In this document: positions 5,925 through 28,943 of the stretch, in pieces
How positions within the stretch are numbered: position 1 is the first letter of the stretch
Layout of the letters: the number at the start of each line of letters is the position of its first letter
Assembly: GCA_020160975.1 (NCBI GenBank)
Contig: JAIUPJ010000001.1
Coordinates: 120,001 to 152,000, forward strand
Length of the DNA: 32,000 nt
Origin: Candidatus Saccharimonadota bacterium
GTDB taxonomy: Bacteria > Patescibacteriota > Saccharimonadia > Saccharimonadales > Saccharimonadaceae
Direction of reading: 5' to 3'
Notes under the pieces: model-generated
What the model was told of the DNA's origin: nothing
The model's database searches: none
Seen by the model: the letters and a program-made list of their open reading frames with translations, nothing else
Translations under genes and position numbers: made by a program

Positions 5925-6941
5925 ATGTTTTCAAACGCGATCGACATGATTGATAACGCGATAACCGTTGTCGTAGTCCAAGGTGAAAACCCAGATGGCG
6001 ATTCTTTGGGCAGCTCACTGGCGCTCGAAGAGTTGCTGAGCGAGCAGGGCAAGACTGTCACCATGTACTGCGCGATTGACATGCCAAAGTACCTCCGGTA
6101 TGTCACCGGCTGGGATAGAGTGGTCAATGATTTTCCGTTGTCAGCCGACTTAGCTATTATCGTCGACACAGCAGCAGAAACACTACTTGAAAAAGCCCTC
6201 TCCAGTCCAGGCGTCCGGCAGTTTCTGGAGTCCCATCCCGTTATCGTGCTTGACCACCACGGAGAGAACGACGACGAAACATCGCAGAATGACCTGTCAT
6301 TCCGCCACGAGTTTGTCATGAGCAGCACAGCACCCGCAACGGGTGAGCTCATCTACGAGCTGGCAAAGGAAGCGAAGTGGCCTGTGACTGCAGAAGCCGC
6401 TCGTAGCCTGTATATCTCAATCGCCTCAGATACACTTGGCCTCTCTACCGAGGCGACGACACCGGAGACATTTCAAACGGTCGCTGACTTGGTGAAATAT
6501 GGCGCAAAACCCTACGAGATCGAGTCGCTTCGCCGTGAATATATGCGCAAACCCGCCGATATTTTGGCCTACAAGGGAGAACTGATCGGTAGGATTGAAT
6601 ACTTACTCGATGGCAAGCTCGCTGTCGTACATATTCCCTGGGAGGATATTCAGGCGTATTCCGACCGCTACAACCCGAGCGTTTTGGTCCTTGACGAAAT
6701 GCGCCTGGTAGACGGTGTTGAAGTCGCGTGCGCCATAAAAACCTATCCTGATGGCAAGCTGACAGGCAAATTGCGTTGCAACACGCCGGTTGGCGCAACT
6801 ATTGCCGGGTACTTCGGTGGTGGCGGGCACAGCTACGCTGCTGGATTCAAGATATTTGAAGGCTACGACGCGGCCATTGCAGAACTTATTACTGCAACCG
6901 ATAAAGCACTGAAGGAATTTCATGCCGCTCAAACTGTATAA
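5925..6941 (+). CDS. nrnA: DHH/DHHA1 phosphoesterase (NrnA-like oligoribonuclease / pAp phosphatase)
   Basis: Motifs DGDSLGSSLAL, VLDHHGEN (DHH) and GGGGHSYAAGF (the DHHA1 GGGH motif). Confidence 0.85.
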   Translation: MFSNAIDMIDNAITVVVVQGENPDGDSLGSSLALEELLSEQGKTVTMYCAIDMPKYLRYVTGWDRVVNDFPLSADLAIIVDTAAETLLEKALSSPGVRQFLESHPVIVLDHHGENDDETSQNDLSFRHEFVMSSTAPATGELIYELAKEAKWPVTAEAARSLYISIASDTLGLSTEATTPETFQTVADLVKYGAKPYEIESLRREYMRKPADILAYKGELIGRIEYLLDGKLAVVHIPWEDIQAYSDRYNPSVLVLDEMRLVDGVEVACAIKTYPDGKLTGKLRCNTPVGATIAGYFGGGGHSYAAGFKIFEGYDAAIAELITATDKALKEFHAAQTV

Positions 6942-12989: not shown

Positions 12990-13001
12990 TTTTAAGCACA
13001 T

Positions 13002-13136
13002 TGGGGTGTCGCCAAGTATGAGAACTGCCTGGGGCAGTTTGCAAGGCCGGAAACCGATTTGAAGCTCTGCTTCAAGTAGTTTGAGGCGAGGCTACGAGCG
13101 ATTGTCGGAGACAATCGACGAGTGGCAAGGCACATG
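13002..13136 (+). pseudogene. Split pseudo-copy of the tRNA-Gln 5' half, interrupted in the D-loop by a roughly 106-nt three-hairpin insert
   Basis: 13002-13017 is identical to tRNA positions 13191-13206 (TGGGGTGTCGCCAAGT). 13121-13136 (AGTGGCAAGGCACATG) matches 13205-13220 at 15 of 16 positions. No T-arm or 3' acceptor strand follows. Confidence 0.5.
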
Positions 13137-13190
13137 AAGTTTCACTTCCCGATTATAGCCGTACCTTTCGTAACCGTAATCACACACTAT

Positions 13191-13265
13191 TGGGGTGTCG
13201 CCAAGTGGTAAGGCACATGGTTTTGGTCCATGCATTCGGGAGTTCGATCCTCTCCACCCCAGCCA
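13191..13265 (+). tRNA. tRNA-Gln (anticodon UUG), CCA encoded
   Basis: Cloverleaf: acceptor TGGGGTG/CACCCCA, D-arm GCCAAGTGGTAAGGC, anticodon stem-loop CATGG-TTTTGGT-CCATG and T-arm GGGAGTTCGATCCTCTC. Closely parallels the E. coli tRNA-Gln sequence layout. Confidence 0.95.
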
Positions 13266-19697: not shown

Positions 19698-19726
19698 TTG
19701 CATATTCATGATGTTTGTGCTATAAT
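19698..19726 (+). promoter_or_regulatory. Near-consensus promoter driving the structured leader upstream of the NRAMP gene
   Basis: TTGCAT (19698-19703), 17-nt spacer, extended -10 TGCTATAAT (19718-19726). Confidence 0.7.
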
Positions 19727-19732
19727 AGAATT

Positions 19733-20046
19733 TAGGCTTGCTGACATCACTAGTCGCTACAATAACTTTGGAGAATTGTGACCGAGAAGCTTTCCTTTGT
19801 GAAATACCCCCCCGGAACCGATGCGGCAAAGTCTGTGTTGGCATTCATAGAGCTCTGGAAGGAGTATGTTGAAATAGCCCCGCACTGCAGCCCGCTCGAT
19901 GTGGCTGCGATGCGAAAGCGCCTCCGCGTCGCCTGGCGGCGCCACTGGAGGGACCACGGACGGCTGATTGTCCGGTCGTCCTGCCATCGCCCCGCGGGGC
20001 CGCACTGAGATTCGTCTCGGAGCGGCCCCGGCCAGGGGCGATTTTT
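19733..20046 (+). promoter_or_regulatory. Roughly 315-nt G+C-rich structured leader ending in a long intrinsic terminator; candidate riboswitch or attenuator, class unassigned
   Basis: Runs from the promoter-predicted TSS to a roughly 21-bp composite hairpin (19987-20041: TCGCCCC..GGGGCCGC..GAGA-TTCG-TCTC..GCGGCCCC..GGGGCGA) followed by TTTTT (20042-20046). The NRAMP ATG lies 55 nt further on. Confidence 0.5.
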
Positions 20047-20100
20047 CATATTCTGCACTGTGATACAATACGTCATAGATTAGCTTAAACGGAATAGTCC

Positions 20101-24546: not shown

Positions 24547-27500
24547 ATGACCAACTTTTCTTCACGCTACAAAAACCTGAATGCCGCTCAAAAACAAGCA
24601 GTCGACACTATTGATGGGCCGCTACTGGTGATTGCTGGGCCCGGGACAGGCAAGACAGAATTGCTTAGCATGCGTACGGCCAACATATTGCAAAAGACCG
24701 ACACACTACCGGAAAATATCTTGTGCTTGACCTTTACGGATAGCGGCGCGACCGCCATGCGAGAGCGTCTCAGTCAAATCATCGGCCCGGCTGCCTACAA
24801 AGTCGCCATCCACACCTTCCACAGCTTTGGCACAGAAGTCATCAACCAAAACAACCAGTACTTTTACCAAGGCGCCAACTTCAAGCCAGCCGACGAGTTG
24901 GCGCAGTACGAAATCTTGACTAGTATCTTCGACGAACTAGACTATACCAACCCATTGGCCAGCAAGCTGGGCGACGAATACACTCACCGACGTGATGCTG
25001 CACGGATTATCAGCGAGCTGAAGCAAGCTGGGCTGACGAGTGACGAGCTACTGGCGATTATTCAGGCCAACGAAACTGTGCTCGATGCCGTCGAGCCAGA
25101 CCTGATGCGTATTTTTGCTGAAAAAATCAGCACTACCATGCTGACACATCTGGTGCCGCTGGCCCAAAAAGTCGCCGCGCTGGTGCAACCAAATCTGCCG
25201 CCCGGCATCACGCCGCTGGCAAATGTCCTGGCACTCAGCATGGCGCACGCCTTTGACGCAGCGGTCGAAACCGGCAAGACCAACGCACTTACCGCTTGGC
25301 GCAACCAATGGATGGAAAAAAATGAATCAGGTGAATTTGTATTCAAGGATCGCAAGCGCTACATAAAGCTGCGTGCCATGAGCCACGTGTACTACTCGTA
25401 CCTCACTCGCATGGAGCAAGCCGGACTGTACGATTACGACGACATGATCTTGAACGTTATCCATGCCATGGAGCTACACAAAGACCTGTCCTATAACTTG
25501 CAGGAAAAGTATCACTATATTCTGGTGGATGAATTTCAAGACACCAACTTGGCACAGCTACGTATTCTATTTGACCTGACCAGCAGCGTGACGGGTGATG
25601 CGCCAAATATCATGGCTGTCGGCGATGACGACCAGGCGATTTACAGCTTTCAAGGGGCAGATGTCAATAATATTCATCGCTTCGCCGCACAATACCCAGG
25701 GTTTCATAGTATAGTGCTGACCGACAATTATCGTTCAGCGAGCACAATTCTTGAATCTGCACGTACTGTCATAACGCAGGGAGGTGACCGACTAGAGCAA
25801 ACAATGGGGCTTAACAAAAAGCTCACTGCTCATGCTAGTCCAGACAATCCTTTTGTCTGCTTGCACGAACTGAGCCATACCAGCAATGAAAGAAGCTGGA
25901 TTGCCAAAAAAATCAAAGAACGTATCGCTGCTGGCACCGCTCCAGACTCAATTGCGATACTGGCAAGACGCCACCAAGAACTTATTGCGCTCGCCCCTTA
26001 TCTTGTCGATGCGGGCATCCCGATCCGCTATGAGCGTCGTGAAAATATTCTTGATTCTCCAGTGGTTCAGACACTTGAACTTATTGCACGGGTAGTTGTC
26101 GCGATCGCCGAAAGTAACCATAGCGAGACTAACTCTCAATTACCCGAGCTCCTCGCTCACCCAATGTATGGGTTTACGCCCGAATCAATCTGGCGCCTTA
26201 GTATTACAAGTGCGCGCAATCACCTAAGTTGGCTTGAGACAATGATAGCAAGTACAGAATTTAAGCCATTTTCTGAATGGCTCATCACTCAGGCGGCGTC
26301 GATTGCTCGTGAACCGCTCGAACTAGTAATCGACCGATTGATTGGGCTTCCAAGCGATACCGTAGGTAATGAAGTTGTTGGCTTTCGTTCACCGTTTTAT
26401 CACTACTATTTTGGTGAAGAATCAAAGAACACTCATGCTCAGCACTACATTGAAGCGCTCGAATCTCTTCGTACAATGCGCGACCATTTACGTGAATACA
26501 AGCCAGATCAACTGCTTTTGTTGACAGATCTGCTTGATTTCATTGACGCACATCGACAGTTAGGCACGCGAATTACCAGTGTTCAGCGCATAAACACAGC
26601 CGATGCCGCGGTACAACTCATGACCGCTCACAAGTCAAAAGGACTTGAGTTTGACCATATCTACGTGATCGGTGCAATTGATAGCGCCTGGGGAGAACGA
26701 GTTCGAAGTCGTAGCCGCCTCATTGGCTATCCTGCGAACCTCCCACTTGCCCCAAGCGGAGGCAGCTACGATGAGCGCCTGCGATTGTTCTATGTTGCAA
26801 TGACTCGGGCAAAACAGAGTCTGACAGTGACCTACAGTGCAGCCGATGACCTGGAGAGGACGCAACTGCTTGCAAGCTTTTTGACCGATACCGGACTTCA
26901 CCCAATCAAGGAGGTGCACACAAAAACAACACGCGAGTTGGTTCGAGATCAAGAAATTGCATGGCATGACCGACTAACCGCACATCCGACTTCTTCTATG
27001 AACGATTTAGTACGGCCAATTCTCGATACTTACAAATTATCAATCACTCATCTAAATAACTTTATCGATATTTCGCGTGGTGGTCCAACTCACTTTCTTC
27101 TCAGTAATCTTTTGCGTTTTCCTCAGGCAAAAAGCGCCAATGCGGCCTATGGTACGGTAATTCATCGTACACTTCAAAAAGCCCACAATCATCTAAGCGC
27201 AACGGGTGAACGTCGCCCGGTTGAAGACGTGCTGGGAGATTTTGTCGCCGAACTCCACGACCAACACCTCTCTCGCGACGACGAGCTTCTCTATGCCAAG
27301 CGCGGCGCCGATAGTCTCAACGTATTTCTACGTAATTGCTACGACGGCTTTCTCCCTGGACAAAAAACAGAGCTGAATTTTGCAAATCAAGGTGTCGTGA
27401 TCAACGAGGCAAGACTGACTGGGGCACTTGACGTCGTGACGCTTGAGGGGCAAGAGATAGTGGTAACAGACTACAAAACAGGCAAACCGTCCCGCGACTG

Positions 27501-27831
27501 GCAGGGAAAGACCGACTGGGAGAAGATAAAGCTCCACAAATATCGTCAACAATTGATGTTTTACCAGCTTTTGACTGAGCATTCGAGAGATTATAGCAAA
27601 TACGATTTCCAGCGCGGAGTCTTGCAGTTTGTCGAACCCGATGCCGCAGGGCGCATCCACGCACTCGATGCCAGCTTCACCCGCGAAGAACTAGTTGATT
27701 TTGCAAAACTGCTTGGTGCCGTCTGGCAATCCATCATGAAACTTGATTTTCCCGATATCAGTGACTATGACCCAACCTTCAAGGGAATGTTGCAATTTGA
27801 AGCAGATCTTATTGACAAATACGGTTATTAA
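24547..27831 (+). CDS. UvrD/PcrA-type superfamily 1 helicase fused to a C-terminal PD-(D/E)xK (RecB/AddB/Cas4-like) nuclease domain
   Basis: Q-motif LNAAQKQAV, Walker A AGPGTGKT, motif II VDEFQDTN, TAHKSKGLEF and YVAMTRAK. C-terminal GALDVVTL..IVVTDYKTGK..YRQQLMFYQLL nuclease core. TATAAT lies 8 nt before the ATG. Confidence 0.9.
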   Translation: MTNFSSRYKNLNAAQKQAVDTIDGPLLVIAGPGTGKTELLSMRTANILQKTDTLPENILCLTFTDSGATAMRERLSQIIGPAAYKVAIHTFHSFGTEVINQNNQYFYQGANFKPADELAQYEILTSIFDELDYTNPLASKLGDEYTHRRDAARIISELKQAGLTSDELLAIIQANETVLDAVEPDLMRIFAEKISTTMLTHLVPLAQKVAALVQPNLPPGITPLANVLALSMAHAFDAAVETGKTNALTAWRNQWMEKNESGEFVFKDRKRYIKLRAMSHVYYSYLTRMEQAGLYDYDDMILNVIHAMELHKDLSYNLQEKYHYILVDEFQDTNLAQLRILFDLTSSVTGDAPNIMAVGDDDQAIYSFQGADVNNIHRFAAQYPGFHSIVLTDNYRSASTILESARTVITQGGDRLEQTMGLNKKLTAHASPDNPFVCLHELSHTSNERSWIAKKIKERIAAGTAPDSIAILARRHQELIALAPYLVDAGIPIRYERRENILDSPVVQTLELIARVVVAIAESNHSETNSQLPELLAHPMYGFTPESIWRLSITSARNHLSWLETMIASTEFKPFSEWLITQAASIAREPLELVIDRLIGLPSDTVGNEVVGFRSPFYHYYFGEESKNTHAQHYIEALESLRTMRDHLREYKPDQLLLLTDLLDFIDAHRQLGTRITSVQRINTADAAVQLMTAHKSKGLEFDHIYVIGAIDSAWGERVRSRSRLIGYPANLPLAPSGGSYDERLRLFYVAMTRAKQSLTVTYSAADDLERTQLLASFLTDTGLHPIKEVHTKTTRELVRDQEIAWHDRLTAHPTSSMNDLVRPILDTYKLSITHLNNFIDISRGGPTHFLLSNLLRFPQAKSANAAYGTVIHRTLQKAHNHLSATGERRPVEDVLGDFVAELHDQHLSRDDELLYAKRGADSLNVFLRNCYDGFLPGQKTELNFANQGVVINEARLTGALDVVTLEGQEIVVTDYKTGKPSRDWQGKTDWEKIKLHKYRQQLMFYQLLTEHSRDYSKYDFQRGVLQFVEPDAAGRIHALDASFTREELVDFAKLLGAVWQSIMKLDFPDISDYDPTFKGMLQFEADLIDKYGY

Positions 27832-27840
27832 GACTATGAT
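27812..27840 (+). promoter_or_regulatory. Near-consensus promoter for candidate ncRNA C, embedded in the helicase 3' end
   Basis: TTGACA (27812-27817), 17-nt spacer, TATGAT (27835-27840). Confidence 0.7.
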
Positions 27841-27847
27841 ATCATTT

Positions 27848-28432
27848 AGTCGCGAGGGAATTACCCTAGCAACGAACACCTCGAAAGGGTGAGCACATTG
27901 GCACATGGAGGTAACGAAGGCGAAGCCCGACAGAGGGCTCACGATGCCTACAAGGCCGCCTTGGAGAGCGACCCGAGAGGCGCGTCCGAGGACACGAAGC
28001 AGCTGAAGGCGGCCCTCGATGCAGCCGCCGCTCGCGAGAACGAAGCGAAGGGAACACCCGGCCAGCGGAGGTACTGAGGCGGCCACGATTGCCGTGAGGC
28101 AACCGTACGAAAGCTCGGGATGCGGCAGTAGCCGGCACGTGGACGCACGGAGGGTACAACCCCTACATCCCAACCAATCTTCTCCTGGGCCAACACACCC
28201 CCATGTGGTCCGGGAGAAGGGGGCAAGTGCATCGAGGGCAGGGCCCCTGCACTTCTGGAGAGCTGCCGTGTCCCCCATTGGCAGGCTCCCAGCACCCCGC
28301 TGCCAGCGCTCCAGTCGCTCGGCAGCGGGGTGGCCCAACAACACACCCTAGGCCAGTACTTGGCGCTCCCACCAGCGCTTCGAGGAACACCTCACCCTTA
28401 TAGCCGTCTCTTCATTGAGGCGGCTTATTCAA
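27848..28432 (+). ncRNA. Candidate large structured ncRNA C (about 585 nt), class unknown
   Basis: Sampled 60-nt lines are 67-72% G+C, against 32% in a sampled helicase line. Perfect long stems: GGCCGCCTT/AAGGCGGCC within 27952-28013, CCCCGCTGCC/GGCAGCGGGG at 28295-28330 and AAGTGCA/TGCACTT. GNRA loops TTGCC-GTGA-GGCAA and CACCTC-GAAA-GGGTG. Terminator-like AGCCGTCTC-TTCATT-GAGGCGGCT at 28402-28425. Confidence 0.55.
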
Positions 28433-28450
28433 TTGTCATTGTTCTCATGC

Positions 28451-28478
28451 TTGTGACTGCAGCAGAATCTGCTATGAT
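28451..28478 (+). promoter_or_regulatory. Promoter for candidate ncRNA D
   Basis: TTGTGA (28451-28456), 16-nt spacer, extended -10 TGCTATGAT (28470-28478). Confidence 0.6.
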
Positions 28479-28484
28479 ATAGCT

Positions 28485-28852
28485 AAGTTGGCAGAGCTGT
28501 AGGGCACCCTCTACGCCTAGACCCGCTGTATCGGTAGATACAAAAAAAGCCCCGTTCTCGAGTACCTTTCATGAGAGGTGAGCGGTGAAGGTAGAGGAGG
28601 TGTTGCCCGCGCGCCCAAGATCCTACCTGAAGAGAGCAGCACCTGGCAGACTCCCCAAAGAACTGCTGGTTGAAACAGGCGCGCTCGACGCCTCTGCACT
28701 CTCTTTTCTGGCCTGACGAGCCACGAAATCGTCAAAGGCTGTATGGCACAGTGGACAGCGTATCAGCGTGCCAAGCTGAAGGTGTGACTTTGATCATCGC
28801 CACAGCCACCCGCCCTCGTCTCGTGTGTACACATGCGTGACGAGGGCTTTTC
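28485..28852 (+). ncRNA. Candidate structured ncRNA D (about 370 nt), class unknown
   Basis: Lies between the promoter and a strong terminator: GCCCTCGTC (28812-28820) / GACGAGGGC (28839-28847) followed by TTTTCC. G+C-rich with internal hairpins such as GACGA-GCCACGAAA-TCGTC. No credible ORF. The dus-like gene has its own -10 further downstream. Confidence 0.5.
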
Positions 28853-28943
28853 CTATTCAGAACCCTGGCACTAAAGGCTAAAGCTATCGTACCATTAACA
28901 AAACTTAGAACTTAGAACCATTGTGCGATATAATAGGCAGGTT

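Follow-up and report, generated by a model that had tools for sequence, protein, structure and literature searches.

A small-protein gene and a predicted structured RNA in one putative transcription unit between a helicase gene and dus in Saccharibacteria

We analyzed a stretch of 32,000 nucleotides (nt; hereafter the window) of contig JAIUPJ010000001.1, from a Saccharimonas-like member of Candidatus Saccharibacteria (TM7), and focused on the 585-nt interval 27848-28432. This interval sits in the 1.1-kb spacer between the gene of a UvrD-type helicase and the dihydrouridine synthase gene (dus). Its G+C content is 0.65-0.69 in 100-nt windows, compared with ~0.51 for the window as a whole. A first-pass annotation of this DNA had correctly pointed out the G+C richness and had described the interval as a single non-coding RNA (ncRNA) of about 585 nt. 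The observation is real but was mis-described: 27898-28077 (~180 nt) is a conserved gene encoding a protein of 59 amino acids (aa), and only the 3' 355 nt behave as structured RNA. A scan with the helicase found relatives solely in Candidatus Saccharibacteria / Saccharimonas genomes, at 38-78% identity. Related loci are labelled with L numbers (from L001) and database proteins with P numbers (from P0001). The features of the locus are given below in window coordinates; stems come from minimum free energy (MFE) and centroid folds, and SD stands for Shine-Dalgarno.

24547-27831: UvrD-type helicase gene, 1094 aa, with a C-terminal PD-(D/E)XK domain; stop codon at 27829-27831
27812-27840, + strand: sigma-70-type promoter, TTGACA, 17-nt spacer, TATGAT, matching 11 of 12 consensus positions
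27847-27872, + strand: conserved leader start UAGUCGCGAGGGAAUUACCCUAGCAAC with a small hairpin GGG-AAUUA-CCC
27873-27897, + strand: cassette-specific leader, with the SD site AAGGGUGAG at 27885-27893
27898-28077, + strand: protein gene with a TTG start, 59 aa, MAHGGNEGEARQRAHDAYKAALESDPRGASEDTKQLKAALDAAAARENEAKGTPGQRRY, a predicted two-helix protein
28085-28106, + strand: hairpin H1 with a GNRA tetraloop, ACGAUUGCC-GUGA-GGCAACCGU, in the MFE and centroid folds
28116-28176, + strand: probable reduced tRNA-like cloverleaf, acceptor (C)GGGAUG/CAUCCC(A), 3' tail ACCA
28178-28221, + strand: predicted long hairpin Ha, UCUUCUCCUGGGCC...GGUCCGGGAGAAGG
28225-28254, + strand: predicted hairpin Hb, AAGUGCA...UGCACUU enclosing GGGC-AGG-GCCC
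28257-28290, + strand: predicted hairpin Hc, GGAGAGCUGCC...GGCAGGCUCCC
28293-28332, + strand: predicted long, near-perfect hairpin Hd, CACCCCGCUGCC...GGCAGCGGGGUG
28333-28358, + strand: C/A-rich linker GCCCAACAACACACCCUAGGCCAGUA, unpaired or weakly paired in the folds and probably single-stranded
28359-28384, + strand: conserved 3' hairpin within the motif AGUACUUGGC...UCGAGGAA
28391-28399, + strand: anti-SD element CUCACCCUU, 9 nt, perfect complement of AAGGGUGAG at 27885-27893
28402-28434, + strand: probable weak intrinsic terminator, AGCCGUCUC-UUCAUU-GAGGCGGCU followed by UAUUCAAUU
28944: start of dus

As the first-pass annotation had stated, the promoter begins within the helicase gene: its -35 box lies inside the final codons. 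Transcription is predicted to start near 27847. The same TTGACAAATA...TATAAT arrangement is found 3' of the helicase gene in L001-L006, L010, L012 and L013. The leader start that follows the promoter is 80-100% identical in L001, L002, L011, L014, L105, L106 and L107, and it remains in place when the open reading frame (ORF) behind it is swapped. In the cassette-specific part of the leader, a local hairpin CACCU/GGGUG (27877-27891) is predicted to occlude the core of the SD site, and comparable SD-sequestering leader hairpins are present in L001, L006 and a group of oral-type loci. The SD site may also be held by the far end of the transcript, as the MFE and centroid folds of the full transcript pair 27885-93 with the anti-SD element at 28391-99. 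Two other candidate pairings between the leader and the 3' end (CCUCGAA/UUCGAGG and CCUAG/CUAGG) were rejected because they are mutually incompatible in order and their positions are not conserved. The heptamer TAGTCGC was likewise discarded as a shared start-site motif, since it occurs three times in the window against 3.7 expected, with no enrichment. Homology between the leader motif UCGCGAG and a 3' domain of the oral-type loci is suggestive only, and we did not use it as evidence.

Comparison of related sequences indicates that 27898-28077 is a real small-protein gene under purifying selection. Its most plausible start, judged by comparison with relatives, is the TTG at 27898, and the product ends in QRRY. 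The homologues (P0001-P0005 and one in L004; 57-59 aa for the database matches) are 64-100% identical, and every one with a readable contig sits directly 3' of the same helicase. Pairwise ratios of nonsynonymous to synonymous substitution (dN/dS) range from 0.07 to 0.32, differences at third codon positions are about twice those at first or second positions, and the orthologue nucleotide sequences are saturated at synonymous sites. The G+C content per codon position is 0.70/0.55/0.72, with similar values in the orthologues. A profile search of 1.84 billion protein representatives retrieved 11 cluster representatives of 52-86 aa showing the same pattern, 10 of which are 52-60 aa long. The 59-aa product matched no Pfam-A family at E values up to 1, and AlphaFold2 models it as a helical hairpin (pLDDT, the predicted local distance difference test, of 76). 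Both the SD site and the start codon are conserved in relatives; in L001-L006 the same promoter comes after the helicase gene, and a short leader with a strong SD site leads into a small ORF. Relatives of the window ORF also occur in genomes whose helicases are just 56-64% identical. In L013 nothing but a terminator separates this ORF from dus, and the ORF is therefore a self-standing gene.

The first-pass annotation had dismissed all overlapping ORFs as compositionally implausible, which is wrong for this + strand ORF (27889/27898-28077). It had also quoted two stems here, GTGAGC/GCTCAC (27889-94 / 27937-42) and GGCCGCCTT/AAGGCGGCC (27954-62 / 28006-14). They exist as sequence but lie inside the coding sequence (CDS) at chance level. 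We measured structure as z, the folding energy relative to shuffled sequence (200 shuffles for the CDS, 100 for the 3' domain). By this measure the CDS resembles its shuffles (z -0.38; 68 of 200 fold equally well), and the stems inside it are not kept in orthologues.

The segment that carries the SD site and the ORF differs between closely related strains whose flanks are 97-99% identical. In L106 and L107 the helicase end is 97-98% and the 3' domain 98-99% identical to the window, and the intervening 27873-28077 is replaced by an unrelated 53-aa ORF, from the same leader start to the stop-codon boundary. The cassette-specific leader (27873-27897) is missing there, having been replaced along with the ORF. 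L011 keeps the window ORF, and its cassette is 92.6% identical compared with 99.4% for the adjacent tail. In L001 the ends of the transcript are common with the window and the ORF is different, and in the oral-type group near-identical scaffolds carry ORFs of different families. Judged from these alignments, the segment with the SD site and the ORF behaves as an exchangeable cassette.

Downstream of the gene, 28078-28432 is non-coding and, according to the folds, strongly structured RNA. The segment 28078-28436 has a z of -6.33, none of 100 shuffles folds as well, and the centroid nearly equals the MFE structure. The idea that the entire interval is structured was partly borne out. Folded as a whole, it beats every shuffle (z -5.3 for the + strand, -4.2 for the - strand), but the excess is confined to 28078-28436. 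All the stems quoted by the first-pass annotation are present, with coordinates off by 1-2 nt. Those in the 3' domain are TTGCC-GTGA-GGCAA (28089-28102), GGGATG/CATCCC (28117-22 / 28166-71), AAGTGCA/TGCACTT (28225-31 / 28248-54) and CCCCGCTGCC/GGCAGCGGGG (28295-304 / 28321-30). The six other ORFs are spurious, as had been proposed: a Pfam search matched none of them, and the G+C content of the tail is flat over codon phases (0.69/0.63/0.64). A database search with the 132-aa antisense ORF retrieved only spurious ORF calls at the same locus in strain relatives, the source of L105-L107. In these loci, public gene calls place ORFs of 171-177 aa (P0017-P0019) antisense to both the small gene and the structured RNA, equivalent to window 27691-28346 (- strand); these calls are an annotation artefact of G+C-rich, stop-poor sequence.

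The pattern of variation in five strain relatives fits constraint on RNA structure. Six substituted stem positions stay paired (as G.U, G-C or A-U) and three substitutions break pairs at stem ends, while about 10 changes and all three indels, including a frame-shifting one of 4 nt, fall in loops. For instance, L106 keeps the pairing of H1 through A-U to G.U and C-G to U.G changes. The pair at 28186 in Ha, which is U.G in the window, reads C-G in four relatives, and a 1-nt insertion lies in the loop. In Hb, 28246 changes from C-G to U.G in three relatives and the change at 28241 lies in the loop. Substitutions at 28263 and 28279 in Hc retain wobble pairing, and its loop takes insertions of 4 nt and 1 nt. 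Read from sequence variants, this pattern excludes coding and agrees with a structural constraint, although it is not decisive at this divergence.

At greater distances the domain changes rapidly. In L001 and L002 (helicase 77-78% identical) just the two transcript ends can be aligned, a hairpin of different sequence stands at the place of Hd, and the linker is again C/A-rich. The 3' hairpin is common to the window, L014, L001 and L002; its inner stems differ yet pair (GGCGCU/AGCGCU, GGCC/GGCC, GGCGU/ACGCC). Among the window, L001 and L002, double changes are found in the terminal hairpin and in the stems equivalent to Hd, in a comparison of only four sequences. Apart from one G.U to A-U change, the window shares the 9-bp stem of the terminator (28402-28425) with L014, L001 and L002. 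A terminator scanner reported no intrinsic terminator here, as the tail UAUUCAAUU misses its U-tract rule; the stem was recognized by eye. When the window tail was compared with all 71 spacers using nhmmer, only L014 and, weakly, L001 were matched, and homology fades beyond the genus. An exact-pattern scan with the 3' motif AGTACTTGGC...TCGAGGAA...AGCCGTCTC gave no match in JGI metagenomes or IMG/VR. We rejected occurrences of CAGAACCGCTTGAGCCC in viral contigs: there were 10 matches, about 7 are expected by chance on a rough estimate, and all of them fall in unrelated-looking sequence of three repeated types, none with the flanking motifs of the RNA. The sequence thus appears to encode a separate unit that runs from a promoter to a terminator and includes a G+C-rich RNA with strong structure, which bears out part of the first-pass annotation.

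Within the 3' domain, 28116-28176 is predicted to form a four-way junction in both the MFE and centroid folds. It has three 4-bp arms with loops of 4-6 nt and no anticodon loop, the "anticodon" arm being a 4-bp stem with a 4-nt loop. The acceptor has G3-C70, and there is no canonical T loop. The cloverleaf is unchanged in five strain relatives. At the same place, L001 and L002 have a tRNA-like element that is found by the Rfam tRNA model or by R1 (46-47 and 33 bits). R1 is a model built here for the tRNA-like element, which it defines by an acceptor of 7 bp and a T stem of 5 bp whose loop reads UUCRANY, located on the + strand of the helicase-dus spacer. In its position, its acceptor sequence CGGGAUG/CAUCCC and its AC(C/U) tail, the window element agrees with those of L001, L002, L003, L086 and L091, and the L001 element ends in ACCA. 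From its sequence and predicted fold, the window cloverleaf is probably a reduced derivative of the tRNA-like element of this locus. The L091 element (1839-1915 in locus coordinates) is a canonical-looking cloverleaf of 65 bits with anticodon UUA, which would read the stop codon UAA; the equivalent elements of L086, L003 and the window have other anticodon loops or none.

The locus type is found throughout the class. A scan with the dus N-terminus yielded 80 metagenomic loci and, together with the earlier loci, 72 keep the order helicase-spacer-dus with spacers of 320-2200 nt. The spacers usually hold one small ORF of 35-70 aa with an SD site, from several unrelated families that include a MAHGGNEG type, CxxCxGxG zinc ribbons, helical proteins with '...AAKQAGSxG...' and others. 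The ORF precedes the tRNA-like element in the window lineage, and the element precedes the ORF in others. Most spacers also contain such an element: R1 gave 67 matches in 85 related loci, all on the + strand at coordinates upstream of dus. The elements of the relatives have perfect 7-bp acceptors, canonical T arms and a variable, non-decoding "anticodon" arm. The "anticodons" called by ARAGORN are arbitrary (Val, Ala, Phe, Glu, Asn, Lys, Ser, Leu, Gly, stop and 4-nt GNRA loops). Some elements match the ends only of the transfer-messenger RNA (tmRNA) model RF00023, at 30 and 23 bits, below the gathering score, and some have G3.U70 with A73.

We searched Rfam 15 (4227 models, including GOLLD, ROOL, OLE, HEARO, raiA, RNase P, 6S and the signal recognition particle (SRP) RNA) at gathering-score and E-value thresholds, with the window plus 27 and 7 related loci. 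In the window and the 27 related loci, tRNA alone reached its gathering score and no other family did. Below threshold, 27848-28432 gave chance-level matches only (E 1-8). To be called a tRNA (RF00005 / ARAGORN), a cloverleaf needed a score of 29 bits or more, an anticodon loop of 7 nt and a canonical T loop. A conserved domain of about 90 nt, GGGYUCGCGAGAUUCA...CCGAGCAGAACCGCUUGAGCCC (also written GGGYUCGCGAG...CAGAACCGCUUGAGCCC), lies 3' of the tRNA-like element in the oral-type loci (L035, L041, L051, L069 and relatives), and a conserved AAAAGAAUCA lies immediately upstream of the element; both motifs occur in ~35 loci without a match in Rfam. A literature search on tRNA-like RNA, tmRNA and ncRNA in Saccharibacteria/TM7, Patescibacteria and the candidate phyla radiation (CPR) found nothing relevant, and this class-wide locus type is apparently undescribed.

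We consider it slightly more probable than the reverse that the locus is a composite transcription unit, in which the mRNA of a small protein, exchangeable as a cassette, lies within a conserved, structured RNA scaffold that would control or process it. Our confidence differs between the parts of this statement. It is high for the anatomy by itself, that is, the promoter, the SD-occluded leader, the gene, the structured tail, the cassette and the pattern of the locus. The mechanism is tentative, and we would rather expect it to need revision. In this mechanism the scaffold, not the ORF, would be the constant functional part. It would set the translation of any cassette it carries through the local and the 3' anti-SD pairing, and would set the ends and the stability of the transcript, with the tRNA-like element serving as a site of RNase P or 3'-end processing. 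Such processing may release a stable structured RNA. A bolder proposal is that a dedicated RNA scaffold between the UvrD-type helicase gene and dus takes swapped, unrelated small-protein cassettes even between near-identical strains, and includes a non-decoding mimic of a tRNA or tmRNA acceptor; we regard this as doubtful.

Several observations weigh against the composite unit. L105 lacks the 5' arm of H1 through a deletion between TGAGGC repeats, and H1 may therefore be dispensable. The terminator is weak, and read-through into the next module is possible. Within the window-type 3' domain there is no double compensatory change, as the strain relatives have diverged too little, and the conservation of the tail (96.5-99.4%) does not exceed that of the flanking genes (97-99.7%). 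The 9-nt anti-SD element is strong solely in the window lineage; its analogue in L001 has just 5-6 bp. RF00005 (at the gathering score and at E up to 10), ARAGORN and R1 all miss the cloverleaf 28116-28176, which does not vary among the available relatives; its tRNA-like nature is therefore suggested by its position, the shared acceptor sequence and the predicted fold. Lastly, the protein gene also occurs in L004 and L013, where no tRNA-like element is detectable, so the protein gene and the tRNA-like part are separable.

The main rival explanation reverses the roles: the 3' domain would be the real product, a stable trans-acting RNA that mimics a tRNA or tmRNA acceptor and is cut from the transcript, and the ORF would be an interchangeable passenger on the same promoter. 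We consider this unlikely. It would account for a scaffold that stays constant while ORFs swap and for the very strong structure signal, and it draws on the tmRNA-like acceptor and T arms of some relatives (30 and 23 bits, ends only), on G3.U70 with A73 in some of them, and on the ACCA tail 3' of the window cloverleaf. Against it, the ORFs are under purifying selection and always have an SD site. The window cloverleaf itself has G3-C70, lacks a canonical T loop and is missed by every model, and some loci have the ORF without any tRNA-like element.

Quite improbable, in our view, is that the tail is the decaying remnant of a tRNA gene cluster that once stood 3' of the helicase gene, kept just as stable hairpins or a terminator region and with no function of its own. 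In the distant L007 (helicase 38% identical) this place is indeed occupied by three normal tRNA genes (Met, Met, Asp), and the elements span a range from canonical-looking (L091, 65 bits) to strongly reduced. Nevertheless, perfect 7-bp acceptor stems and canonical T arms are kept in dozens of lineages and only the anticodon arm varies, which is not the pattern of neutral decay. The adjoining motifs (AAAAGAAUCA upstream and GGGYUCGCGAG...CAGAACCGCUUGAGCCC downstream) are conserved, and strain-level substitutions in the window tail favor pairing.

The reading of the first-pass annotation, one 585-nt ncRNA with an accidental ORF, now seems very improbable. High G+C, many stems, the overall z of -5.3 and an ORF product without a Pfam family speak for it. 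It is contradicted by conservation at the protein level (dN/dS 0.07-0.32, synonymous sites saturated), by the conserved SD site and start codon, and by a CDS that folds like its shuffles and whose stems are not kept in orthologues.

A housekeeping RNA (RNase P RNA, tmRNA, 6S or SRP RNA) so diverged that Rfam misses it is a barely credible reading of the tail. A length of ~355 nt and the G+C richness would fit, the tmRNA-like acceptor/T-arm matches in relatives could be cited for it, and there is a precedent, since RNase P RNAs of CPR bacteria can fall below Rfam thresholds (PMC8172020). Yet a search of 1.25 kb gave no match at E up to 10, and the relatives, searched at E up to 1-5, gave acceptor/T-arm ends only. 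Neither the window nor 71 spacers yielded a tmRNA with ARAGORN. Moreover, the tail is a string of independent hairpins without a P4-type long-range core, and its sequence turns over fast between genera, unlike that of housekeeping RNAs. RNase P RNA was considered specifically, because relatives contain motifs such as CAGAACCGCUUGAG and in view of the same precedent (PMC8172020), and was rejected for the lack of a permissive-threshold match and for its wrong architecture.

Equally hard to credit is a decayed high-G+C protein gene fragment or a recent foreign import: the local G+C of 65-69% against 51%, the long ORFs on both strands and the antisense ORFs predicted by gene callers in related contigs suggest one, but none of the six ORFs matches Pfam, the 132-aa antisense ORF matches only the same locus in strain relatives, codon periodicity is absent, close relatives have 4-nt and 1-nt indels, and the locus is syntenic across the class and therefore not a recent import.

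The composite unit that we favor resembles several known systems in part. RNAIII/hld, SgrS/SgrT and SR1/SR1P are dual-function RNAs or small-protein mRNAs with functional structured untranslated regions. As in these, one transcript would join a translated ORF (<60 aa) to extensive conserved structure, with translation probably gated at the SD site. Unlike in these, the ORF here is an exchangeable cassette of unrelated families and the scaffold includes a tRNA-like element. tRNA-like processing elements are known from mitochondrial tRNA punctuation, MALAT1-mascRNA, E. coli tyrT-tpr/rtT and tRNA-mRNA co-transcripts cut by RNase P. A non-decoding cloverleaf beside an mRNA on the same strand is analogous and would suit processing by RNase P or at the 3' end. 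In contrast to those elements, that of the window is strongly reduced and missed by tRNA models, and the element belongs to one syntenic locus class-wide.

With tmRNA (RF00023, including the domain-only mitochondrial forms) the locus shares a tRNA-like and an mRNA-like part in one RNA. The ORFs differ from that of tmRNA in having their own SD site and start codon, a length of 35-70 aa and no degradation-tag ending, and the tRNA-like part is compact and contiguous instead of being built from both ends of the RNA, with no pseudoknots. Searches for tmRNA (RF00023, permuted forms, ARAGORN) gave no match in the window, and we do not assign the RNA to this family. Finally, integron cassettes and polymorphic immunity or antigenic loci are hypervariable cassette loci between conserved flanks. 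In the helicase-dus locus, too, close strains have small ORFs that are unrelated to each other but occupy exactly one position, with near-identical flanks on either side. However, the cassette boundaries showed no integrase, attC-type site or repeat, each cassette is single and brings its own SD site, and RNA-structure sequences make up the flanks.

A second module of the same plan adjoins the unit downstream (window 28451-28860), with the following features.

28451-28478: promoter TTGTGA-16-TATGAT with an extended -10, then an SD site
28585-28716: 43-aa ORF MKVEEVLPARPRSYLKRAAPGRLPKELLVETGALDASALSFLA
28737-28808 (28737-28811 for the R1 match), + strand: aberrant tRNA-Gly(GCC)-like element, then a terminator

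The element of this module scores 41 bits with the Rfam tRNA model and 21.7 bits with R1 (E ~0.009), and it goes undetected by ARAGORN. Its T arm is non-canonical, A7.C66 is mismatched, and the changes in L014 improve pairing in the D and T stems. In the SD region of the module (window 28566-28584), GAGAGGT(G) is expanded in tandem in L014 (~915-945) and L105 compared with the window. An ACTTAGA heptamer repeated in tandem lies just upstream of the dus -10 box (window 28903-28916), in 2 copies in the window, L014 and L105 and in ~9 copies in L001 (~6355-6417). This array may be a promoter spacer of variable length.

Two other sites in the window drew our attention. A duplicate of the 5' part of tRNA-Gln(UUG), ATTGGGGTGTCGCCAAGT, stands behind a promoter-like site exactly 189 nt ahead of the real tRNA, and a second fragment, GGCAAGGCACATG, resembles the D/anticodon region of the same tRNA (sites 13000-13017, 13125-13137 and 13189-13265). 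These fragments could represent a split or partly duplicated tRNA or another tRNA-like leader. A G+C island of up to 74% at 19700-20050 combines a promoter-like site and an SD site with a possible ORF of ~76 aa from a GTG at 19779 and a strong terminator-like hairpin at ~20012-20050, and is probably another small-protein gene that can be mistaken for an ncRNA.

Genomes of Saccharibacteria are about 1 Mb in size, and to our knowledge almost no regulatory RNAs have been described in these bacteria. Because the unit is kept at one syntenic site across the class in such small genomes, with so few described regulatory RNAs, it is unlikely to be incidental. For annotation, the locus illustrates that G+C-rich "non-coding" islands can hide real genes of 50-60 codons, and that spurious antisense ORFs are called on the RNA part. 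If the scaffold controls or processes the mRNA of a micro-protein, it would constitute a new RNA family, bring several new small-protein families to a phylum of which little is known, and provide a marker of strain variation in these epibionts. Should the bolder proposal of a dedicated scaffold with an acceptor mimic prove true, it would be a type of system not described before, built on the joint action of a tRNA-like RNA and a hypervariable micro-protein, with a possible role as a strain-specific effector or immunity function, or in translation-linked control, in epibiotic, genome-reduced bacteria.

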